The notes: generated by a model from the sequence alone, not told the origin. A stretch of DNA of 64,000 bases from Rhodothermales bacterium (GCA_965261255.1 CBDHCQ010000004.1:2104076-2168075), one strand, 5' to 3'; positions 35,246-56,417 are shown, numbered from the stretch's first letter. Made by a program: numbers and translations.

Positions 35246-38200
35246 TCAGAAGATCTCCCATCCTTTGAGCCACTCGTTGTCGGCTGCATAGTCCATGGGC
35301 GTCTTGCCGTACCGGTCAAGCGCGTTGGGATCGGCGCCCAAGTCCAACAGAACCGGAAACAGGACCGGGTTCCGCAGGGCGGCCAGATGAAGCGGAGTCC
35401 ATCCAGATCTGGCACGTGCATTTACGTCAGCTCCGGCCCGCACGAGCAATTCCAATACTGCCGGGTCAGGGCTTGCGTATACAGCCCAGTAGAGCGGGGG
35501 TGCACTAGGTCCATAGGTATGGTCCAAGTCACCGCGAGCGTTTACATCAGCCCCGCCTGCAATGAGCGCGGCGACTACCTCAGCGTCGCCGCGTTCCATG
35601 ACGGCTTCGTGCAAGGGCGTCCGGATTCCCGTGTACTTCGTCAACGTAATGGCTCCTCGCCAAGGGGTGGCCCCACGAACCATTGACGACGCCGCCACCA
35701 TGCTCCTGCGATCCGACCAAACTTCGTCATTGGCTCCCTGTGCGTTCACCTCAGCCCCGGCCGCTAGGAGCGCTTTTACAATTTCGGGATTTCTGTTCTT
35801 GGCTGCCGCTTCGTGCAGCGGGGTTCTGCCGCCTGGAAGCGGAGCATTCACCTCGCCGCCTCGGCTCACAAGAGCTGCGATAACCGCCGGATTTGAATTG
35901 TAGGCCGCTGCATCGTGGAGCGGCATTCGCCAACTGGTAGCTACTGCATTCACGTTGGCTCCGGCATCCAGCAACGCGAGGACGATTGCAGGATGTTCAT
36001 TGCGCGCAGCCTCATGCAACGGCGTGACATCCCATTTGTAGGGAGTACTGCCGTACCGCTGGGCCGGTCCGGTTGCCCAAGCTTGCACGTCGGCACCAGC
36101 CGCAACCAATTCAGCAATCACGGCGGATTCGGTATTGTCGCGGGCGGCGTAATGCAGAGGCGTGTAGTTGTCCTCGTTACGTGCGTTGACGTCTAAGTCG
36201 GCACCTACGAGCAGAGTGATCACCGTAGGATCCCTAGTCCACGCGGCAGCCACGTGAAGCGGAGTCGAATCGGCCTCGTACGATACCAGCTGCCCCGAGT
36301 GGTTTCTTACCTGGTTATACTGAACCTCGGCTTTAACCTCCGCACCGGATTCAATGCAACGGGCTACGATTTCGGCTGTTGCATAGCGAAAGAACACGGG
36401 ACTGGGCCATTTTGCGCAGCTCGCCGGGTCGGCCATCGTGCCCGAACTGTCCACCAGCGATGGATCGGCCTCCAGTTCCAGCAACTGGGCAACAGCAGTG
36501 GGATTTTTCTCCCGTACCGCCACATGCAACGGCGTCCCGCCGTTTTCGTCGCGTGCGTTTACGTCAGCTCCAGCGTGTACCAGAAACTGAATCATAGCGG
36601 GATGCCCCGAGCGACCTGACGCCGAATGCAATGGTGTACCGCCCGAGTTCTGGCGCGCATTTACATCAGCACCGCCTTCTACTAGCACCGTGGCCGTGGC
36701 GCGGTTGTCAAAGTGTGCTCCCGCGGCAACGTGCAGTGGCGTGGTGCCCGCTCGGTCACGCGCGTTCACCTCCGCACCGCCCTCCAGCAAGGCCGTCGCG
36801 GCATCCGGCAACGCAAGCGATCTGCTTGTACCTTTCGCTACGTGATGCAGAGGCGTTGATCCATCCCAACCACGCACGTCGGCGTCTGCTCCGGCTCCGA
36901 GCAACACCGCTATAGCGTCCGGGAGAAAATGATGATTCCAGTCCCGTTCATACACCAGGGTACGCAACGGCGTCTCCCCCCTGCCGTTCTTGGAATTGAA
37001 CCATATTCCAGCCGCACGGCACTCTTTGAGCCGGGCAACCGGAGCGACCGCGAACAAATCATAGTTTACCCAATCACACACCGGAAATTTTGGCGGTTCC
37101 ATCGCTACGACCTCCGGTTCTGGGAGTGCTCCCAGTTCCAGAAGCTTGTGCACGAGCTGGATATTTCCGCGCCTTGAAGCACTTTCAAGCGCAGTCTCGC
37201 CCTGATCGTTGCGCGCGTCCATGTCTGCTCCAGCATAAACTAATATGGCAACTGTCGCTGTGTCACGATCGGACGCCGCTAAACCCTCGAACTCAACCTC
37301 CGCTTTAAGCTCCGGCGGTGTGTTGAAGGCACGGGGCACGGGCCACCACCCTGACCTCATGCTCGCACCCACACGGTGCAATGGCGTATCACCGCCCTCG
37401 GCCCGTGCGTTTACGTCCGCACCTGCGTCCAGTAGCGCATGTACGATGTTTAGGTTTATCCTGGCGGATGCAAGATGCAACGGAGTGGTGCCCAAAGTGT
37501 CCCGAGAATTGACCTGCGCACCGCTAGCCAGCAGGATGTGAATTTGCGAGAGTGCTTTACCGCGACGAGCCAACAGGTGAAGCGGAGTTTCGCCGCTTGC
37601 CGCAGACGCATTTACGTCCGCGCCAGCCTCAATCAGCGCGTGCATCATGGGGCCTGTGGCCCTGGACCCATACTGCGCAGCAATGTGTAGTGGACTCCTT
37701 CCATTCACGTCCCGCGCGTTGGGATCTGCCCCCCGTTCCAGCAACCAGGCAACGGGCTCCTCATGGCTTGATTGCATTGCAGCATGGAGCGGCGTCTGAT
37801 TCGACACGTTGAGCGCATTCACATCCGCACCGGCTTCCAAGAATAACTCGGCGATGGAATTACGCTTGCTATGGACTACCCAGTGCAATGGGGTATTGCC
37901 GTCTCTGTCCCGAGCGCCCACATCCGCTCCGGCTTCAAGAAGTACCCGGGCAAAATCGTACTTATTATTCGATATCGTCCGGTGCAGCGGGGTTGCGCCG
38001 AGTTCGTCCTTCGCTTCTATGTCTGCACCCGCCTCCAGCAACAAAGCCGCAGCCGTGATATCGCCCCGGTTTGCCATTCGGTGTAGCGGCGTCATCTTGC
38101 GATGATCCAGCACGTTTGGATTCGCCCCTGCCTCCAACAGCAATGCCAGCGCGCCGTGGTACGGCTGCCGCGACCAGTCCCCAAGCATCAGATTCAGAGG

Positions 38201-46689: not shown

Positions 46690-49449
46690 TCAAGGCATTA
46701 TGGTAATTGAGTAACTGGTCAGATCCTCGGCGTATAGACCCTGGTAGGTCTGTCCATCGATCGTAAGATCATAGGGTCCCGCATCGGGCAGCCCCTCGAT
46801 CCGAATCTCCACCGGATAGGGCTCCTCATACGGCGAGGGCAGTTCGGACATCAACTTTGCGATGTCAATGGTGAGAGAGCGACCTTCCAGGTCATAGCCC
46901 TCAATGGCCAGTCCATCCACGCCTACGGCTATATCACGAGCGACATCAATGTAAACGCCTCCCAACTGTTTCAGCACATCTGCTGCGGCCATGAGACCGC
47001 CCACCTCTGCCCAACTTGGCCCTGAACGTAGTGGGGTCTGGGGAAAGCCTTCATGGTCAATATTCTCCGGCCCCAGTCCGAAGGGAAACGTGGGTGCATT
47101 GTAGATTCCGTTGGCCGTATGGCGGGGGTGCGTAACCAGCGTCAGGGATGAGCGGGCCGCCGCGACGCCGCGTTCAATGAGATCCTGGCGACCGGTCAGC
47201 AGTCCCAGACGTACCAGAATCCCCGCGAATCGGTGATCCCGCTGGTCAAGCCATTCAGCATCTCCAATCTGTGACGTGAAACCGCCAAACGGATAGGCCG
47301 TGATGATATAATGCGGCGCCCAAACCGTCTGGAGCAGCACTGCGTAGTCCGCAACCGCCTCCGCTGCATCCAGGTATAGGGGATCTCCGGTTGTTTCATA
47401 CATCGAAACGAAGCCCTCCAGCGCCCATGACATGGCCATAGCATTGCGTGGCGGCTGCCCAGTCCGATCATCGTGGAAGGTCTCGGCCTTCACCGCGCAT
47501 GAGTAAAGTGCCTCGAAGTCAACCCAACGCTGCGTAGGCAGCACTTCCGTAATGAGAAATCCTGCTGCTCGCCTGGCCGCGTCCAGGTAAAGGGTATCTT
47601 TCGTTGCACGAAAAAGCTCACTGAGCACCCATACATTCGCCCCTCCTTCCGCATTCCACCGCATGGACAACCGTGGCTCCATGTTGACATCAAACCAAGA
47701 GGGCACCGAGCCGTCGGGGGCCATTTGTTCTACCAAAAAATCCCCAAATCGCTGCGCAAACGCCAGAATGCGCGGGTCTTCCCGGCCGAGATGATAGAAT
47801 TCCATCAGGTAGCCGACCGTAACAGCTGCCGCGGCCGTGTGGTAATCCGAGGTCTCCCAGTCCCAGTAGTTGCGTGTCTCATTCGGATTGTAATCCTCCC
47901 CGGGAAAGCGCCAGAGGCTGCGCTGCCAGGACTTTTTGTCCAGGTCATACAGGGACGGAAACATCCCCTGATTCTGCGGGGCATCCAGAACCAAGTTGAT
48001 TATCCGGTCGACCTTCGCCCCGAATGATGCATCAGACAATGTCTCCCCCCAGTAGGATAACCCCATCGCATCGGCGACATTGTTCCACCAAGCTGTGATG
48101 TAGGTCAGATGAAACCATTGGGGCGCTGTCAATCGAAACATGCCCATGTCCTGCCCATCCGTTTCCCACTCCTGCCAGGACGTCCATGCCTGTGGCCCGT
48201 CCGAGGATCTCTGGACCATTATCGGCTGAGTGTCCTCGACTTCCACCGTATATCCCTTGTAGTCAAAGCTCGCCGGATAGAGGGCTCTGGCATATTCGGC
48301 AAATGGAAGTGCCTGGGGGCGTGGCCTCCGAAAATAGTGCTGACCATAGTGTTCCCACAGGAATTGGGAAACGCGCTGATAGCCGCGGTGTGCCGGTGCA
48401 TCGGAAGCCAGGAGGAGATCCATGCCGTACTGCAACTCATTGCCGGAAAGGGTGCGCACAAACGTGCCTCCGGCATTAACATGGCGCCAGTACACATGCT
48501 GCTCCGCTATTACGTCCATCAGGCCGTAGGCCAACAGGGGTTGACTGGTCATCCCTGAGACCAGCTCCAGATCCAGCACGGCTGGCAATGTTATTCTGGA
48601 CGAGTCAATCGGCACTCCAAAAATCCAACGATGCTTCTGGGGGCGGGCCCGTTCTGCATAGACCCTGTGCTCATTAATCAGATTCAGATCCGGTACAATG
48701 GCGGCAACCTGTCCGCCGGTTTGCACCATTACTGTCGGCGCAAAAAAGACACGGTCAGCAATGACATCACCGGGAGAACGCTTGTATGCGGGCGCATGAC
48801 TGAATTCCGGGGTACCTGCTTCTGCAAATGCGATTGGGGAAAGCAGATATTCCAATTGTGGCGGATCACCCTTTAGCTCAGCCCGCACATTAATCTGCAC
48901 CGAAGCCGCACCGCTGCGCAGCGTCAACGATTGCTCTATATTTGCGATTGATGTGCTTCCCGACAGCGTCACAGTTACCTGATCTTCGTCCTGCCCCGCA
49001 ATTTCAAACGTACTAAGCACCTCCGGGACGATAATTCGGTAGTCATCCGCCACTTCGAGCGCCCGACCGTGCTCATTGGACCGATCCAAATACAGCTCTG
49101 TCGTGTTCACAGGTCGCGGGGATGGCGGCCTGAAGGCCTCTGCCACCTCCACCCAAATCCCGTCCCTGGCGGCAAAAAAGTGCTGACTGACTCCAAATTC
49201 ATCTTTCTCAATGACCACCCTGACCTGCCGGTTGGAGAATTCCAAGCCGTTTGCTGTGTGATGTACATTGACCTGTGCCGATGACCCTGTAGCCAAGATG
49301 GTCATCCACAGTAGGACTATGGCGCAGCGCGCGGGGGCACAGATCCTGGCGGTATTAGCACGAAGGATGGCGGAGAGATTAGGCGCGTGGGCAGCCTTGG
49401 CAGGTCTGCCACGCGAGCTGATCAAGGGTACTGTAGTGTTAGTTGTCAT
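46690..49449 (-). CDS. Large secreted protein with an (alpha/alpha)6-toroid-like C-terminal region; putative glycoside hydrolase/lyase of unassigned family
   Basis: 919 aa with a hydrophobic N-terminal segment. The C-terminal half is rich in W/Y-containing helical hairpins (GANVWVLSELFRATKDTLYLDAARRAA..., WALEGFVSMYETTGDPLYLDAAEAVADYA). The context is sulfatases and fucP. Confidence 0.4.
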   Translation of the reverse strand: MTTNTTVPLISSRGRPAKAAHAPNLSAILRANTARICAPARCAIVLLWMTILATGSSAQVNVHHTANGLEFSNRQVRVVIEKDEFGVSQHFFAARDGIWVEVAEAFRPPSPRPVNTTELYLDRSNEHGRALEVADDYRIIVPEVLSTFEIAGQDEDQVTVTLSGSTSIANIEQSLTLRSGAASVQINVRAELKGDPPQLEYLLSPIAFAEAGTPEFSHAPAYKRSPGDVIADRVFFAPTVMVQTGGQVAAIVPDLNLINEHRVYAERARPQKHRWIFGVPIDSSRITLPAVLDLELVSGMTSQPLLAYGLMDVIAEQHVYWRHVNAGGTFVRTLSGNELQYGMDLLLASDAPAHRGYQRVSQFLWEHYGQHYFRRPRPQALPFAEYARALYPASFDYKGYTVEVEDTQPIMVQRSSDGPQAWTSWQEWETDGQDMGMFRLTAPQWFHLTYITAWWNNVADAMGLSYWGETLSDASFGAKVDRIINLVLDAPQNQGMFPSLYDLDKKSWQRSLWRFPGEDYNPNETRNYWDWETSDYHTAAAAVTVGYLMEFYHLGREDPRILAFAQRFGDFLVEQMAPDGSVPSWFDVNMEPRLSMRWNAEGGANVWVLSELFRATKDTLYLDAARRAAGFLITEVLPTQRWVDFEALYSCAVKAETFHDDRTGQPPRNAMAMSWALEGFVSMYETTGDPLYLDAAEAVADYAVLLQTVWAPHYIITAYPFGGFTSQIGDAEWLDQRDHRFAGILVRLGLLTGRQDLIERGVAAARSSLTLVTHPRHTANGIYNAPTFPFGLGPENIDHEGFPQTPLRSGPSWAEVGGLMAAADVLKQLGGVYIDVARDIAVGVDGLAIEGYDLEGRSLTIDIAKLMSELPSPYEEPYPVEIRIEGLPDAGPYDLTIDGQTYQGLYAEDLTSYSITIMP

Positions 49450-49503: not shown

Positions 49504-50997
49504 CTATTCTTTTGGGAGATTTCGACCCATTGCCTGGTGATCCTGCTGCGAACGCAGGTGCCGCAGACTCCGGCGATCGTCCATCAAGTGCACGATCGGC
49601 AGTTGATCCGTCCCGGTCTTATCCCATGAGCCCAGCTCGGCTCGAGCACGCGCAGCCTCTGCCATTAATCGTGCCACTATTTCAGGATGGGCGGAAGCGA
49701 GATCCTGAGTTTCTCCGGGGTCCGCTTGCAAGTCATACAGCAGCGGTTGTTCAAGTTCGCGAAGCCCCGACTCCCACCAGACTAGCATCTGCGAACTGCG
49801 AGGGAGGTGCAGCTTCCAGCGACCCTCGCGGACTGCCTGCAGGTTCACACCGTTGTAGTAGTAGAATACGCGATTGTCTATCCCTTGAATCCCTTCTCCG
49901 AATAGAAGAGGGGACAAATCTCTGCCATCCACTTTGCGATCGGTAGGCAGAGCGGCCGCGGCAAGACTGGAAACTGTAGGCAGCAGGTCCATAGCATTGA
50001 CCATCGCGTCGCTTACGGTTCCCGCGTCAATACGACCAGGCCAGCGCATAATGCAGGGCACACGCATACCCCCTTCAAATGTGGTTCCCTTCCCGCCTCT
50101 GAAAGGCCCGCTAGAACCGTTGGGCCCAGGTCCGTTGTCTGATGTGAAAATCACCAGTGTATCGGCTGCCAGGCCGGATTCATCAAGCGCGTCCAGGATC
50201 TGGCCGGCACTCCAGTCTATCTCCTCAACCATGTCACCGTACACGCCACCAGGCGATTGTCCTGCGAATCTTGGATTGGGCATCCAAGGAGCATGGGCAC
50301 GCGTGTGCGACAGGTATAGCAGGAACGGGTGGCGACGATCCGCCAGCATAAACTCGACCGCTCGTTGCGTAAAGTGCTCCGTGATCGTAGTTAAATGGGC
50401 ATCTGGATCCACCACTTCATCGTTTTCCAGCAATGGCGTAGAGCCATCTGGGCTTGAATTGCCGACCATGCCGTAGAACAGGTCAAATCCGTGCCGGGTG
50501 GGATGAAATTCCGATTGCGCAGTGAACCCTTCATGCGTCTTAAAGTCAAAGTCTCGCGGAATGCCCAGGTGCCATTTGCCGACGCAGGCCGTCCTGTAGC
50601 CTTGAGCTCTGACCAGTTCGGCCACGGTCACTTCACTTTCCTGAAGCCCCAGATCGCTGTAGACCCCGCCCACCGCGAACGGTACCCCGCATCGCGAGGG
50701 ATACCGCCCTGTCAACAATGAGGCACGTGAGGGACTGCAAACCGAACAAAGGGAACGGTAATCGGTGAATCGAATGCCTTCTGCAGCGATGCGATCCAGA
50801 TAGGGCGTTCTGATCGTTTCGGATCCATAGCAGCCAAGGTCACCGTATCCCAGATCATCGGCAAAGATGAGGACTATATTGGGACCCTTAGCATTCGAAT
50901 TCCGACAGCCGGCTCCATGGATGGCCGCAGCAAAAGTGGTCAGCAGGATGAATTCCCGCCTTGTCAAAGCAACATTTCCAGGAGAGGACTGCATCAT
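49504..50997 (-). CDS. Cys-type arylsulfatase (formylglycine-dependent), Tat signal
   Basis: Carries CSPSRASLLTGRYP (the CxPxR FGly motif), IVLIFADDLGYGD, and a TRREFIL twin-arginine N-terminus. Confidence 0.9.
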   Translation of the reverse strand: MMQSSPGNVALTRREFILLTTFAAAIHGAGCRNSNAKGPNIVLIFADDLGYGDLGCYGSETIRTPYLDRIAAEGIRFTDYRSLCSVCSPSRASLLTGRYPSRCGVPFAVGGVYSDLGLQESEVTVAELVRAQGYRTACVGKWHLGIPRDFDFKTHEGFTAQSEFHPTRHGFDLFYGMVGNSSPDGSTPLLENDEVVDPDAHLTTITEHFTQRAVEFMLADRRHPFLLYLSHTRAHAPWMPNPRFAGQSPGGVYGDMVEEIDWSAGQILDALDESGLAADTLVIFTSDNGPGPNGSSGPFRGGKGTTFEGGMRVPCIMRWPGRIDAGTVSDAMVNAMDLLPTVSSLAAAALPTDRKVDGRDLSPLLFGEGIQGIDNRVFYYYNGVNLQAVREGRWKLHLPRSSQMLVWWESGLRELEQPLLYDLQADPGETQDLASAHPEIVARLMAEAARARAELGSWDKTGTDQLPIVHLMDDRRSLRHLRSQQDHQAMGRNLPKE

Positions 50998-51599
50998 TCG
51001 CCGGACTCTTTCAAGTGTGCATCCAATAACTCCACGATGTGGTCGTGGCCGTAGTGCATTGCCAGTTCCTTCGGGGTCAGGCCACCTCCCGGATTAGCCT
51101 TCGCATCCGCCCCGGCCAAAAGAAGGGCCTCAGCGAGCGCGTGGCTGCCGCTGAATGCCGCCCAATGCAAGGGGGTCCATTGTTGAGCACCATTGGCTGT
51201 TCTGAGATCTGCACCCGCAGTAATCAGTAGTCGGCCCGTGCCTTCTTGGCCTTTCATGGCGGCTCGCATAAGTGGTGTCCATCCGTCAATGCCTTCCGCC
51301 TCAACATTGGCGCCCCACTCCAGGAGCAACGATGTAATCGCCTCGTGGCCAAGTTTAGCAGCACGGTGCAGTGGGGTCCAGCTAGCAGCCCCGACCTGTT
51401 CTAGCTCCGCTCCAGCCTCCAATAGTATCTGCACCATGGTGCTGTCACCTGTTGCTGCGGCACGGTGCAACGGCGCCCAATCGCCGTATATGCCATTTAT
51501 GTCGGCTCCTGCAGCCAGGGCCGCTTGAACAGCCGTCAGGTCACCTGCCTCAATGGCGCGATGCAAATCACTGGTCGACTGCTGTATGGCCCTGTTCAT
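50994..51599 (-). CDS. Cytoplasmic ankyrin-repeat protein (about 5 repeats) embedded between two sulfatase genes
   Basis: 201 aa with no signal peptide and repeated WTPLHRAA...LLL..GA motifs. The stop overlaps the downstream sulfatase ATG (ATGA). The start lies 3 nt after the upstream sulfatase stop. Confidence 0.85.
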   Translation of the reverse strand: MNRAIQQSTSDLHRAIEAGDLTAVQAALAAGADINGIYGDWAPLHRAAATGDSTMVQILLEAGAELEQVGAASWTPLHRAAKLGHEAITSLLLEWGANVEAEGIDGWTPLMRAAMKGQEGTGRLLITAGADLRTANGAQQWTPLHWAAFSGSHALAEALLLAGADAKANPGGGLTPKELAMHYGHDHIVELLDAHLKESGE

Positions 51600-51602
51600 T
51601 TA

Positions 51603-53210
51603 CTATTCAAATACTTGGTCAGGGTGATCCATATACCACTTCCATTCAAGCTGCTCGCGTGCGTCAAGTGTGTCTTCGCGACTCAGCAGCTGGAAGCGGT
51701 ACTTTCGAAAAGCGCGCATATCCTCCTGCATGGCGCTAGACGTCGCTTCCCAGTGCGGACTGCCCAGCCATTCGTGGGGTACTGGGTAGTCAGGATGGGC
51801 TGATCCGGTGGGCCGAACACCTCGGCCAGGCTGGCCGTAGTCACCGAGTTCAGCACGTGCTTCTTCCGCCAATGCTGACAGGCGGACCACAATATCTGGA
51901 TACTGGGCGGCCACATTCCTAGTCTCACCTGGATCCTCGTGCAGATTGTAGAGCTCCGGCTGTTCCATAATGGTCGTATTGACCGCAAGCCACGGTGCAC
52001 ATTCACCGTAGATGCCCTCGCGCGACTCTGGGCGCGCTAGGTGCAGCTTCCATTCCCCCGCCCGCAGGGCCTGCAGCCAGGTCCCGGCGTAGTAGTAGTA
52101 CACTTCGTGCGGACTCTTTGCTTCCGCAGATGCCTGCATCAGAGGCCACAGGCTTTTGCCATCTATGGCGCGGTCTTGTGGCACGGAAGCGCCTGACAGG
52201 TCTGCGATTGTCGGCATGATATCCATGACGGTGACCAACTCACTACAGATTGCGCCAGCCGGGATATTGTTGGGCCATCGCATGATGCAGGGCACACGCA
52301 CGCCCCCTTCCCATGTGGTCAGTTTGCCACCTCGGAGTGGTTCCGCCGAGCCAGACTGATCTTGGAAGCCCAGCCATGGCCCGTTGTCCGAGGTATAAAT
52401 GACCAAGGTGCGCTCGTCCAGGCCCAGCGACTGCAAGTGATCCAGAATCAGCCCCGTACACCAGTCAATCTCTTCCACCGCATCTCCGTATAGCCCGGCA
52501 TCGGAAACACCTTGGAACTCCTTGCCGGGATATATGGGGATATGCGGCATCGGATGCGCCAAATAAAGCAGAAACGGCTGATGCTGACTGCGCTCAATAA
52601 ACTGCATGGCTTCACGGGTGAAGTCCTGCGTGAACTGGAAATGGTTGGGACGTTCAGTGATCTTTCGATCGTTGTAATAAAGCGGCACTGCAAAATTTTC
52701 GAATGGCTGTGTGCCATTAACGATGCGGATTCCATAGAAATAGTCAAAGCCCTGGCGATTTGGAGCGAATTTATCGTCCTGGCCCAAGTGCCATTTGCCT
52801 ATGCAGGCGGTGGAATAGCCCAATGGCTTGAGCATATCCGCAATCGTAATCTCGTCGGGGCTGAGCCCGAAGGGGGCATCGTACAAATGTACATCGGGCA
52901 CGCCGACCCGTACAGGGTAGCTTCCGGTAAGCAGCGCCGCACGCGAGGGACTACAGATCGGACTCACATAAAAGTCCGTAAAGCGCATGCCTTCGGCCGC
53001 CATACGATCAATGCGCGGGGTCCGAATATTGGGCGATCCATAGATACCTAGGTCATTGTAGCCCTGGTCGTCAGTAAAGATGATCACGAAATTCGGCAAC
53101 TGCCCACGCGCCGCCCGGCAGGCGGGTAGCCCTCCGGCCATTCCGAACAACGCCGCTGCTTGACCCACCACCTGCAGGAATTGGCGTCGATGCCAGGATC
53201 CACGCTCCAT
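51603..53210 (-). CDS. Cys-type arylsulfatase with a C-terminal extension, Tat signal
   Basis: Carries CSPSRAALLTGSYP, FVIIFTDDQGYND and an HRRQFLQ twin-arginine motif. The start is set at MERGSWHRRQF (53210); the track ATG at 53297 would add 29 residues. Confidence 0.9.
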   Translation of the reverse strand: MERGSWHRRQFLQVVGQAAALFGMAGGLPACRAARGQLPNFVIIFTDDQGYNDLGIYGSPNIRTPRIDRMAAEGMRFTDFYVSPICSPSRAALLTGSYPVRVGVPDVHLYDAPFGLSPDEITIADMLKPLGYSTACIGKWHLGQDDKFAPNRQGFDYFYGIRIVNGTQPFENFAVPLYYNDRKITERPNHFQFTQDFTREAMQFIERSQHQPFLLYLAHPMPHIPIYPGKEFQGVSDAGLYGDAVEEIDWCTGLILDHLQSLGLDERTLVIYTSDNGPWLGFQDQSGSAEPLRGGKLTTWEGGVRVPCIMRWPNNIPAGAICSELVTVMDIMPTIADLSGASVPQDRAIDGKSLWPLMQASAEAKSPHEVYYYYAGTWLQALRAGEWKLHLARPESREGIYGECAPWLAVNTTIMEQPELYNLHEDPGETRNVAAQYPDIVVRLSALAEEARAELGDYGQPGRGVRPTGSAHPDYPVPHEWLGSPHWEATSSAMQEDMRAFRKYRFQLLSREDTLDAREQLEWKWYMDHPDQVFE

Positions 53211-53302
53211 ACCGGCTTCAGTCCTGCCTTGAGGGCCCGGTTTGGGGCAATAGGTGCCGGGAAAGCGCATTAGGCCGCTAATATCTGCAACGCCCAAATA
53301 GT

Positions 53303-54349
53303 CTATAGCCCGAATGCCACGGAGACGACATGCACCGACCCAAGCAGGCCAAATTCCCAGAATGCGTACCCCAGATTGAGCGTATAGTCACTGAGGCCTA
53401 CATTGACACCGCTGCCCAGAGTAAATCCTTCCTCGTCGTAATTGAAGCGGTACCCGCCACGGATCGACAACAGGTCGCGAAAGGTGTACTCTGTCCCGAA
53501 GTTCACCTTCTCGGGGCCATCATTGGGGTGTACAAACTCTGCAGCTATCGTCAAGTGATGCAGACCGCCGGCATCGCCTTCAATTAGGTCATAGGCCGCA
53601 CCAAAGCTGAAATTGACCGGCATACGGATATCGGCTGGTTCGTACCCGATGCGCTCGTCAAAGGAAGCAATCTGCGTATCGGGACCGATGTTGCGACCTA
53701 CCATAGTGACGCGCAGACTTCGAATGCCCGTATGGAACACCGTGCCGATGTCCACTGCCCAGGCGCCGACAGTTGCGTCGTCCAGGGTTTCTGAAATGTA
53801 TTTGATGTTGACGCCGAAATGTAACTGCTCTGTCACCCTGCGGGCGTAGCTGACCCCCACGGCAAGGTCCCGAGCAGTCACGGTTCCCAGATTCGTAAGC
53901 ACCTCCGAGCGTCCGGTGGGAATGTCATCCAGTAGGATCGGCCTGTTTTCGGTACGCGGCATGTCGCCGTAGTCCAAAAACAGCAGGTTTACACCGATAA
54001 TGCCGATTCCCTCAAAGTTCCGGGCAGCAGCCGCGCTGTAGTAATTGATGTCGGCAATCCAGCGCACGTTTGTGAGTCCGATGTCAAGACCGGTTACATC
54101 CACCAGCGAGGCAGGATTAGTGAGCGACGATGCCGCATCGCCACGCCCCAGTGATGAGATGACTCCGCCCATTCCTGCTTGGCGTGCGTTGGTGGGCAGT
54201 TTAAGGAACTGGAATCCCGACTGCCCTACGCGGTTGAAGTCTGAAGGAGGAAGCCCAGTACCAGGGTCCGGGGTGAATTGAGCATACACGGGGGCCAGGC
54301 TGGCGGTCAAGAAAGCCAAGCAGGCCAATAGGAAAGTCAGTCGCTTCAT
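53303..54349 (-). CDS. PorV/PorQ-family outer-membrane beta-barrel protein
   Basis: After a signal peptide (MKRLTFLLACLAFLTASLAPVYAQ) comes GQSGFQFLKLPTNARQAGMGGV...NPASL, characteristic of the PorV/PorQ family. The start is set at MKRL. Confidence 0.6.
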   Translation of the reverse strand: MKRLTFLLACLAFLTASLAPVYAQFTPDPGTGLPPSDFNRVGQSGFQFLKLPTNARQAGMGGVISSLGRGDAASSLTNPASLVDVTGLDIGLTNVRWIADINYYSAAAARNFEGIGIIGVNLLFLDYGDMPRTENRPILLDDIPTGRSEVLTNLGTVTARDLAVGVSYARRVTEQLHFGVNIKYISETLDDATVGAWAVDIGTVFHTGIRSLRVTMVGRNIGPDTQIASFDERIGYEPADIRMPVNFSFGAAYDLIEGDAGGLHHLTIAAEFVHPNDGPEKVNFGTEYTFRDLLSIRGGYRFNYDEEGFTLGSGVNVGLSDYTLNLGYAFWEFGLLGSVHVVSVAFGL

Positions 54350-54390
54350 GAGATTACTCGGTAAGTGGGTGCGGGCAGGATTAATTACCA

Positions 54391-56367
54391 TCATTTGACG
54401 ATCAGGAACTTGCCTATGCTTGACTCTCCTTCATGTCCTTGCACATGCGATTCGATATGGTAGATATAAACACCCGGTTGAACGTTTTGGAAGAAGCGCG
54501 TCAGAAGGTAATCCCCGTGCATAGCCGAGCCCCAGGCCTCTTCTCCGAAGCCATCGTTGTGCTCAATGGTGCGCACGAGCTCCCCGGCAACAGTGTAAAT
54601 GCGTATGGTGCATTGACCAGGGATGTTCAGAAAGCTGATTCGCTTCTCCTCTGATGGATCAGAAAGCCCGCTAACCTGACGGAACGGATTCGGGATCACA
54701 AGTACCTCGGACAGATCGTTGCTCGGTGCCGGCTTGGCCGCCAGAGCGTGGAACGTATAGGCGGTGAATCCGCTTTCATTACCATCCAAATCGTAAGAGG
54801 TAACCCAATGACGGTACGGAATTCCTGGCTCGGCAGGAAGGCGGAAGGTCACCTTCCCCCCGGCGGTAAGCTCCTCCGCTTCAGCGCGTGCCAGGTCAGC
54901 GGCTTCGATCCATGGTCCTTCAATCCTTGACTCAGACCGGTATACTTTGTATCCAGCAAAGTCATTGGTGCCCGTGATGGGATCCCGGTAGCCGGGAGGT
55001 ACTGCTGTCCAGGTAAGCTCAAACCCCTGTGTACCCAGTTCTGTGTCAACGTAGAGTTCAACCTGCAACTCGTCGTCATTGCTGGCAAACGGAGCATCGC
55101 CGACCGTTGGAGGCGGAAACGCGGAGATGCCCTCATTCCAGTTGCCTGTCCGTCTGAATCCGTCTACAATATCCAGCGCCGCCTGCCAATTCGCCTTCAG
55201 ATTGACCAGTCCCTGCGACAGATAGTTTTGGGTGGCATTGAGGCCCCCTAGCTCACTGACATTGCGGTCCATTTCGCCAAGGGCAACTACACGAATGAGC
55301 TCTACTGAATCTCCAGGCGCAATATCATAGGGTCCGATCCCCAGGTTGAACGAAGGCACACGTTCATACAGGTTTCCATCTATGGTGCCGCCAGCTGTAT
55401 TGGCGTCCCGCCAGCTCATGCGGGCCTGCTGGGCCGTCATGCGGGTAAAGACGTACGTCGGATCCTGATTGGTTGGCTGCCAGAACTCTTCATCAGGTGC
55501 TCCGGGGTTCTCATTCAGGATGCGGTGGAAAATGCCCTGATAAACCATCGTCTCACCATGCTTATTGGGCGTGACATAGACAATGTTGTCCGTGAAGAGC
55601 TGCGGAGAGTACAGGCGGCGGTCAATCGAATTCTGGATTGTGATATTGCCGGGATCACCACGGTCACCGGTCTGATCGCCCGGGGAAATATCATAGGCCA
55701 CCGGCGTCTGGTTGGGCGGCATTGAGGTGTCGTCATAGAACACGAAATTGCCCTGCTCCATGCGAAAATTGCTGAACCCCGGATCCCACAGGTATTCGTC
55801 GTCAAAGGACACGCTGTACGGGATGCCCAGGCTAATATTGATGCCGTAAGCGACGCTGTAGTACCAGTTGGTGATCTGCTCGCTGCTCTGGTTGGTAAAC
55901 ACCTCCCGATGGATAATAAAGTCGTCATATTTCGGCAGACTCCACACCATTCGCTTGCGCGAAACTGTCAGGGGAATGACCGGGACTTCAGACCCGGATG
56001 GGTCCACAGACGTGACGGTCTCATACGAGTATTCTTCGGCCTCAGTCAGGCTTTCTACAAAATTGTAGTTCTTTACCTGCGTGTGATGGACGATGTTGAA
56101 GCCTGGCCAGCCACCGGTAACATGCTGCGTGCCATCCACTTCGCCCGCCCAGTAGCTGAGGTTATTGAACCAATTGGATGGCGCTTCGAAATAGCCGGGA
56201 TACGAGGCCAGCCAGATCGGCGGGTTGGGTATCGATTCACTGATGACCGTCCAGAACTTGCCCCGCGTAAAGGTGTGATCAGTGCTGCTTTGGCCAGTGA
56301 CCGCTGTGCAGGGCAGAACCAAGATCAGGACTGCGACCAGGGTGCTGTGAATTGTATGGGATTTCAT
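54391..56367 (-). CDS. Secreted hypothetical protein with an Fn3-like module and a C-terminal FlgD-Ig/T9SS-CTD-like beta-sandwich
   Basis: It has a signal peptide and YKVYRSE...GPW (Fn3-like). The C-terminal roughly 100 aa read IPNPFR...ISFLNIPGQCTIRIYTVAGELVRTIEH...GVYIYHIES...GKFLIVK, the pattern of T9SS type-A sorting / FlgD-Ig domains. Confidence 0.5.
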   Translation of the reverse strand: MKSHTIHSTLVAVLILVLPCTAVTGQSSTDHTFTRGKFWTVISESIPNPPIWLASYPGYFEAPSNWFNNLSYWAGEVDGTQHVTGGWPGFNIVHHTQVKNYNFVESLTEAEEYSYETVTSVDPSGSEVPVIPLTVSRKRMVWSLPKYDDFIIHREVFTNQSSEQITNWYYSVAYGINISLGIPYSVSFDDEYLWDPGFSNFRMEQGNFVFYDDTSMPPNQTPVAYDISPGDQTGDRGDPGNITIQNSIDRRLYSPQLFTDNIVYVTPNKHGETMVYQGIFHRILNENPGAPDEEFWQPTNQDPTYVFTRMTAQQARMSWRDANTAGGTIDGNLYERVPSFNLGIGPYDIAPGDSVELIRVVALGEMDRNVSELGGLNATQNYLSQGLVNLKANWQAALDIVDGFRRTGNWNEGISAFPPPTVGDAPFASNDDELQVELYVDTELGTQGFELTWTAVPPGYRDPITGTNDFAGYKVYRSESRIEGPWIEAADLARAEAEELTAGGKVTFRLPAEPGIPYRHWVTSYDLDGNESGFTAYTFHALAAKPAPSNDLSEVLVIPNPFRQVSGLSDPSEEKRISFLNIPGQCTIRIYTVAGELVRTIEHNDGFGEEAWGSAMHGDYLLTRFFQNVQPGVYIYHIESHVQGHEGESSIGKFLIVK

Positions 56368-56417
56368 CTGTTCAGACTCTTTCAGTTTATTGGTTGACTA
56401 CATGATTCCGGGCACCC

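Follow-up and report, generated by a model that had tools for sequence, protein, structure and literature searches.

The 64,000-nucleotide stretch of a Rhodothermales bacterium analyzed here (GCA_965261255.1 CBDHCQ010000004.1:2104076-2168075, hereafter the window, with positions counted from its first letter) encodes a small ankyrin-repeat (ANK) protein, ANK201, between two sulfatases, SulfA and SulfB. Comparisons at the sequence level support the view that this gene is a dedicated, conserved and selected companion of sulfatase genes and no chance neighbor. We tentatively propose that ANK201 is an accessory subunit of one sulfatase lineage, the SulfB type, in a glycan-degrading locus, that it was ancestrally extracytoplasmic, and that it may now leave the cytoplasm as a hitchhiker on the route of twin-arginine translocation (Tat). 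The three genes and their junctions are as follows.

49504-50997, minus strand: SulfB, 497 aa, Cys-type sulfatase of family S1 (PF00884, 4e-60), twin-arginine (RR) leader with TRREFIL.
50994-50997, minus strand: ATGA overlap of the ANK201 stop and the SulfB start.
50994-51599, minus strand: ANK201, 201 aa, six-repeat ankyrin protein with no signal peptide and no Cys, matched only by ankyrin models (Pfam).
51597-51605, minus strand: junction of the SulfA stop and the ANK201 start, TAG-TAA-ATG in frame (SulfA TAG at 51603-51605, ANK201 ATG at 51597-51599).
51603-53270, minus strand: SulfA, 555 aa, Cys-type sulfatase of family S1 (PF00884, 4e-63), RR leader with HRRQFLQ.

The three open reading frames are packed without spacers, with 3 nt between SulfA and ANK201 and a 4-nt overlap between ANK201 and SulfB. 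Both sulfatases contain the C-x-P-x-R motif (CSPSRA[AS]LLTG); they are approximately 50% identical to each other, and SulfA has a C-terminal extension of ∼70 aa. The leader of SulfB terminates in a lipobox-like GAGC and that of SulfA in LPAC, with a lipobox-like Cys. By sequence, the nearest solved structures to SulfB are steryl-sulfatase, arylsulfatase A and GalNAc-6-sulfatase. A first-pass annotation of this DNA had already pointed to both junctions, to the C-x-P-x-R and RR motifs and to the missing signal peptide of ANK201, and all of these hold: the highest Kyte-Doolittle hydropathy over 12 residues at the N-terminus of ANK201 is 1.5 and lies within the first repeat helix, and in-frame stops directly upstream of the ATG rule out a longer N-terminus. 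Its start for SulfA, at 53210, had to be revised, as the start kept across the genus is the ATG at 53270, whereas relatives do not share the Met at 53210; the other alternative start is a TTG at 53297. Counted from the ATG at 53270, the n-region ahead of the RR motif is unusually long (26 aa) and rich in Pro and Gly. A scan for minus-strand promoter- and terminator-like sites inside 49504-53300 returned none, the region-wide counts being at chance level.

The close relatives of this genome (3.7 Mb) are metagenome-assembled genomes (MAGs) labelled Rhodothermales or Rhodothermaceae, many of them presumably sponge-derived to judge from their isolate names. Orthologues of ANK201 (85-98% identity) occur in 8 of the 24 species of the genus, and the same 8 species have orthologues of SulfA and SulfB (at least 92% identity; in G018 the contig ends inside the ANK gene, with SulfA out of view). 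The remaining species have only paralogues, at ∼51% identity or less. This shared distribution indicates that the locus was gained or lost as a whole. Seven relatives display an identical gene order and the exact junction spacing, with TAG-TCA-ATG or TAG-ATA-ATG between SulfA and the ANK gene. Beyond the genus, the SulfA-ANK-SulfB order is kept at ANK identities of 52-75% (L049-L052, L054-L056, L058, L140), again with RR leaders on both sulfatases and with a spacing that varies between an overlap of 8 nt and a spacer of 48 nt: the gap between SulfA and the ANK gene is 6-48 nt in these other lineages, and the ATGA overlap with SulfB, kept in the genus and in L058, gives way to an 8-nt overlap or a 3-nt gap in the other lineages with a signal-less ANK. 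We also considered a programmed read-through fusion of SulfA and ANK and rejected it: the two genes share a frame in the genus, L049, L050, L052 and L055, where one or two stop codons and 0-15 sense codons lie between them, whereas L051, L054 and L056 have them in different frames. SulfB continues the frame of ANK past a single stop in L054, L060 and G430.

The constant neighbor of the ANK gene is SulfB. A SulfB gene lies directly downstream in 23/23 loci that have an orthologous ANK and visible downstream DNA (the window, L035-L041, L049-L052, L054-L061, L139, L140 and L141), at ANK identities from 35 to 100%. We assessed the specificity of this linkage by a pattern scan of metagenome contigs, which gave 80 loci encoding ANK relatives. 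All five with at least 50% ANK identity have a SulfB orthologue directly downstream, versus none with a sulfatase within 6 kb among the 75 loci with generic ANK relatives (<47% identity); the nine distant genome matches to ANK likewise had no sulfatase nearby. The arrangement, in register base for base in seven other species, is far beyond chance. Our literature searches (ankyrin with sulfatase; sulfatase with twin-arginine and formylglycine) returned no description of an ankyrin-sulfatase pairing, which agrees with the earlier remark that the arrangement is unusual. The ANK orthogroup is single-copy, and when its profile was compared with 1.84 billion representatives, the best 150 matches were all giant multi-ANK proteins.

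The upstream sulfatase is far less constant. L060 and L061 have ANK-SulfB without any upstream sulfatase, and the genes at this place in G430 and L141 are no orthologues of SulfA, which has orthologues only within the clade of the signal-less ANK. Since the upstream gene is a non-orthologous one in three lineages, or is absent, it is SulfB, and not the sandwich of two sulfatases, that constantly accompanies ANK. The first-pass annotation had put the sandwich at the center: its order is indeed conserved in relatives, with the junctions in register in seven other species, but the core proves to be ANK and SulfB only. A trace of such turnover is visible upstream of a signal-bearing ANK at L053:447-560 (syntenic with L060 and L139), where a sulfatase remnant consists of an RR leader, MERRTFLRLTGAGTT, followed by a frameshift and then PNIVLI. 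It matches the intact upstream sulfatase (SulfA') of G430, indicating that the upstream sulfatase was deleted there and ANK-SulfB retained.

On the side of the enzyme, an RR leader and the tail motif [DN]DRRxLRHLRxQQ are shared by every listed SulfB homologue with 65% identity or more, with a single K-for-R exchange in the tail of P0125. The next group of homologues (53-58% identity) is mostly Sec-type; P0140, the one member checked for its context, adjoins a glycoside hydrolase of family 116 (GH116) and DUF6786 and has no ANK gene. The basic C-terminal tail of SulfB (∼35 aa, ELGSW...HLMDDRRSLRHLRSQQDHQ..G, window 49504-49640) is among its most conserved parts in all lineages, with a predicted local distance difference test (pLDDT) score of only ∼63-66 in AlphaFold2 (AF2). 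The idea that this tail is an ANK-specific docking peptide is unsupported, as the ANK-less sister group (P0140 type) has a related tail, roughly 35 aa longer.

ANK is under clear purifying selection, with a ratio of nonsynonymous to synonymous substitution rates (dN/dS) of 0.20, versus 0.11-0.15 for the neighboring genes. It evolves faster than they do, both within the genus (85-97% identity versus 92-98%) and in deeper comparisons (52-61% versus ∼62-77% for the sulfatases). Over all lineages (35-100% identity), 33 residues are nevertheless invariant, including W74, W107, R112, W141, H145 and W146, and W41, R46 and R79 are nearly so. In ANK201 these residues form a ladder, W41/W74/W107/W141 with R46/R79/R112, completed by an H145-W146 motif. 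The Trp residues of the ladder immediately precede the TPLH motif, a position that we take to be one of the target-contacting sites on the concave face of designed ankyrin repeat proteins (DARPins). Among the retrieved ANK matches, a set biased by word matching, 37% have a Trp at the ladder position; all four Trp are present in every orthologue among these matches and in one other match (P0049). AF2 was run on a natural read-through fusion of ANK and SulfB from L054 (TAG read as Q), and predicts the ANK domain of this orthologue as six helix pairs, or repeats, with a pLDDT >90; with a shallow alignment of 27 rows the sulfatase stayed unfolded, and the predicted TM-score (pTM) was 0.51.

Several orthologues of ANK201 are predicted to be exported. 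N-terminal hydropathy maxima are 0.6-1.5 for the signal-less ANKs and 2.55-3.16 for the signal-bearing orthologues, and reference proteins with signals, including formylglycine-generating enzymes (FGEs) and a giant ankyrin protein of the window, fall at 2.4-3.2. Three arrangements with a signal-bearing ANK stand out. The locus of G430, a complete genome from another family within the same order, reads SulfA'(RR)-ANK-SulfB(RR) followed by an anaerobic sulfatase-maturating enzyme (anSME); the ANK of G430 and L060 starts with the signal MEKTQRIREVRFVAAMLVTCMLLAALA|IQD, and L060 and L053 represent the G430 lineage after deletion of the upstream sulfatase. L061 (41% GC) carries GH172, an SASA esterase, an ANK that bears a lipoprotein signal (...FLMTAC) and a SulfB with an RR leader. 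L141-L143 (34% GC), from records whose names designate marine or Tara Oceans metagenomes, encode GH172, a further sulfatase (SulfX) and an ANK that each bear a lipoprotein signal (...LLLLSC in the ANK), a SulfB-like sulfatase and GH116; the SulfB-like partner in L141 has a Sec leader with no RR motif, so that this trio is entirely Sec-type. We read the polarity from the SulfB tree, the tree of the short and repetitive ANK protein being poorly resolved. L061 and the pair L060 and G430 fall outside a clade (support 85/97) that comprises all loci with a signal-less ANK, which indicates that the ANK signal was lost once and that the loss is derived.

The signal-less ANK occurs only where both neighbors carry twin-arginine leaders, and the RR motifs of SulfA and SulfB are kept in every lineage with a signal-less ANK. 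Such leaders, which mark a route of folding before export, are rare among the ∼23 sulfatase ORFs of this genome: only SulfA, SulfB and C4:19218-20579 have them, the remaining sulfatases carrying Sec-type leaders, mostly lipoprotein signals. TatC is encoded in the genome.

Putting these observations together, we envisage that the ancestral ANK was exported on a Sec or lipoprotein signal of its own and encountered the sulfatase beyond the cytoplasm, in the periplasm or at the outer membrane, binding it probably through the concave face that bears the invariant Trp/Arg ladder. In the clade of the window, the signal would have been lost once, with the gene tightly coupled between two sulfatases with RR leaders; the signal-less ANK would then bind the folded sulfatase in the cytoplasm and cross with it via Tat as a hitchhiker. 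We thus infer a physical binding of ANK to SulfB, a co-export by Tat and, for the enzyme, a stabilizing, activating, anchoring or substrate-presenting role of ANK. For the signal-less clade, hitchhiking is the most economical if unproven reading, because the protein would keep the same job with no change of function, and it fits both the tight coupling and the loss of the signal only between sulfatases with RR leaders. That the triad represents a natural Tat hitchhiker pair without a redox cofactor, and that SulfB-type enzymes are two-subunit sulfatases made of an S1 chain and an ankyrin chain with a Trp/Arg groove, is a possibility that we would not press. In a bolder extension, the bound ANK may keep the sulfatase competent for formylglycine formation by an exported FGE after transport.

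The nearest functional analogue seems to be the KatB-AnkB pair of Pseudomonas aeruginosa, in which a small ankyrin gene lies in a catalase operon and the catalase needs its product to work optimally (Howell et al. 2000, cited in PMC12754779). The title of that study calls AnkB periplasmic, and katB-ankB and katA-ankA operons are also known from Myxococcota. In both cases a small ANK gene shares an operon with one enzyme gene, here in all 23 loci, and the exported orthologues described above are predicted to leave the cytoplasm, as is reported for AnkB. Yet the partner there is a catalase and here a sulfatase, the ANK of the window is signal-less and placed between two enzymes, and the likeness of the ankyrin proteins is known only at the level of the generic ANK repeat.

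Mechanistically, the closest analogues would be the heteromers that cross by Tat hitchhiking. Hydrogenase-2 (HybO/HybC) and DmsAB are known examples. PaoABC is another natural one, in which several signal-less subunits ride on a single leader (PMC4273604), and an engineered hitchhiker selection in E. coli has employed ankyrin-repeat binders, where the DARPin carries the Tat signal and takes its bound partner along on export (PMC6478843). As in these heteromers, a signal-less protein is encoded beside a partner with an RR leader and is presumably co-synthesized with it, ANK being encoded beside SulfA and SulfB; the signal-less ANK moreover has relatives that would work outside the cytoplasm. 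The known cases differ in being redox enzymes with a cofactor inserted in the cytoplasm, whereas here the candidate carrier is a hydrolase and the passenger a repeat scaffold.

Several points weigh against hitchhiking and against the partnership behind it. As the signal was lost a single time, the rule that a signal-less ANK occurs only between Tat substrates amounts to one evolutionary event, and to our knowledge all natural hitchhikers are redox-cofactor enzymes. The leaders of SulfA and SulfB in the window score below the thresholds of TIGR01409 and PF10518, so that the earlier call of Tat signals stands in part only: it has in its favor the RR motifs, TatC and orthologous leaders that reach the TIGR01409 cut-off (L049 with 20.8 and 16.8 bits, G430 with 20.2, L061 with 16.9), and the assignment of the window leaders to Tat is thus a prediction from the RR motif and orthology. 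With a deep sulfatase alignment, AF2 folds both domains of the L054 fusion (mean pLDDT 90.8), but the pTM of 0.72 is near the value expected of two undocked domains, and the output comes without predicted aligned errors or contacts. A last difficulty concerns maturation: the FGEs of the genus are all exported and anSME is absent from it, yet three Cys-type sulfatases of this genome have RR leaders, making it doubtful how or whether these fold fully before export.

The maturation genes were located as follows. In agreement with the first-pass annotation, the window contains no FGE or anSME gene; a search of the rest of the genome recovered two FGE-family genes, G000 C4:237985-238848 and C4:748275-749258, ∼1.9 and ∼1.4 Mb away. 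Both carry lipoprotein signal peptides, as do the FGE orthologues in G001 and G016. No anSME was found in the genome of the window, nor in any of 11 genomes from the genus and family. G430 has a cytoplasmic anSME directly after SulfB (518 bits on TIGR03942), and its PF03781 matches do not resemble FGE. The anSME of G430 versus the exported FGE of the genus may be connected with the loss of the ANK signal, although the comparison, a single lineage against a single lineage, is only an anecdote.

The first-pass annotation had instead seen in ANK201 a cytoplasmic escort comparable to TorD or DmsD. As a function of the family, such Tat proofreading is ruled out by the exported orthologues with the same conserved face (G430/L060/L053, L061, L141) and by the all-Sec trio of L141. 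The signal-less form may still have a clade-specific cytoplasmic role, as a chaperone, holdase or inhibitor of the folded, Tat-bound sulfatases that might cover their signal peptide or active site until export and be released at the translocase. We consider this unlikely, although a fair number of observations would suit it: the N-terminus of ANK201 has no signal and cannot be extended, every signal-less lineage shows tight coupling at both junctions, both neighbors have RR leaders in a genome whose other sulfatases are nearly all Sec-type, and purifying selection continued after the signal was lost. ANK201 also resembles TorD, DmsD and NapD in being small, lacking a signal and sharing an operon with its presumed Tat substrate. 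But its fold consists entirely of ankyrin repeats, its orthologues are exported, one pair is Sec-only and the substrate has no redox cofactor. ANK has no similarity to the TorD, DmsD or NapD families: no redox enzyme maturation protein (REMP) family appeared among its Pfam and NCBIfam matches, all of which are ankyrin models or ankyrin regions of larger proteins, nor among its PDB sequence matches, almost all DARPins and other ankyrin-repeat proteins. A cytoplasmic role would moreover require a new function on a surface that is unchanged from three basal lineages exporting ANK on their own signals, and the genus has no cytoplasmic maturase for ANK to coordinate with. The related proposal that ANK201 recruits the maturase fits poorly for the same reason, the FGEs of the genus being exported with lipoprotein signals and anSME being absent.

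The invariant W/R ladder over consecutive repeats could also be understood as a binding site for a sulfated glycan, where Trp would stack on the sugar rings and Arg would contact the sulfate, in which case ANK would be a substrate-binding accessory outside the cytoplasm, presenting the substrate in trans, and would lie beside SulfB owing to a common substrate and not to a protein complex. The lipoprotein forms of ANK in L061 and L141 agree with this, and the locus is always a glycan-degrading one, with GH116, GH172, DUF6786 or an SASA esterase nearby. We nonetheless find it improbable, since the strict adjacency to one sulfatase orthogroup, while other genes of the locus vary, points to the enzyme itself, and the signal-less form would still need a carrier out of the cytoplasm. 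We also know of no ankyrin repeat that acts as a carbohydrate-binding module.

It is very unlikely that ANK201 is a stranded remnant, left in the cytoplasm with little or no function after a rearrangement removed the signal-coding 5' end and kept by operon inertia. Its faster evolution and the highest dN/dS of the operon could be taken that way, but a value of 0.20 denotes clear purifying selection, no signal-less locus examined, down to 52% identity, has a broken reading frame, and the ladder as well as the start/stop coupling have been retained.

The other alternative of the first-pass annotation, a eukaryote-like host-interaction protein of a sponge symbiont that came into a sulfatase operon by chance, is hardly credible: the repeat type, a genome within a Rhodothermales MAG clade with many apparently sponge-derived members, and a Sec-exported giant ankyrin protein at 35246-41485 all recall the ankyrin proteins of such symbionts, but the orthogroup is single-copy, operon-bound and invariably adjoins SulfB, ANK201 has no secretion signal and a different binding face from that giant protein, orthologues are also found on the 34%-GC, plankton-labelled contigs, and generic ANK genes never adjoin sulfatases (0/75 loci). 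The single-copy adjacency to SulfB and the plankton-labelled contigs thus argue against a host-directed effector. A sponge-microbiome paper (PMC5735121), going by its title and term counts, reportedly has both ankyrin proteins and sulfatases among its features.

Sulfatases are usually treated as single-chain enzymes with the formylglycine maturase as their sole helper. If ANK is a partner as we propose, it would be an unrecognized subunit for one sulfatase lineage in glycan-degrading loci of marine and host-associated bacteria, and would matter for the expression and assay of such sulfatases. If the signal-less form is carried by Tat, hitchhiking would extend beyond redox enzymes, and the lineages would offer a natural series, from an own signal through its loss to riding on a partner, in which to study swaps of export route. 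The case would also be a caution that ankyrin genes in sponge symbionts are not all host-directed effectors.

The triad is part of a longer co-directional locus, with an upstream part (53303-62761) and a downstream part (43663-49449) on the same strand:

60158-62761, minus strand: GH116 lipoprotein (Pfam), upstream part.
56418-59498, minus strand: TonB-dependent receptor (Pfam), upstream part.
54391-56367, minus strand: unknown protein of 658 aa, upstream part.
53303-54394, minus strand: unknown protein of 363 aa, upstream part.
46690-49449, minus strand: unknown protein of 919 aa, downstream part.
45397-46632, minus strand: DUF6786 protein (Pfam), downstream part.
43663-44985, minus strand: permease of the major facilitator superfamily (Pfam), downstream part.

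The upstream part is syntenic in every close relative as well as in L049, L058 and L140, and synteny of the downstream part is likewise kept in relatives. GH116, DUF6786 and a SulfB-clade sulfatase recur jointly on Rhodothermales contigs and on one contig labelled Bacteroidales (L049, L140 and L144 are among these loci), which suggests a conserved uncharacterized module that desulfates and degrades a glycan. GH116 and a SulfB-like sulfatase are also found together in the plankton contig L141, and GH172 in both L061 and L141.

Two further ankyrin genes were seen in the genome. One, G000 C4:1946345-1947211, is a 288-aa ORF with no obvious signal and no sulfatase nearby, and is the sole other ankyrin gene besides ANK201 and the giant one. 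The giant ankyrin protein has 2,079 aa and a Sec signal (MKPLILVTALGLLYASPAASQ) and is encoded ∼8 kb from the triad. A derivation of ANK201 from this gene was rejected, given an identity of ∼40% and no Trp/Arg ladder in the giant protein, where the ladder Trp is present in 1 of 31 repeats. The giant gene accompanies the triad locus also in G016, G021 and G022, at a distance of ∼10-15 kb.

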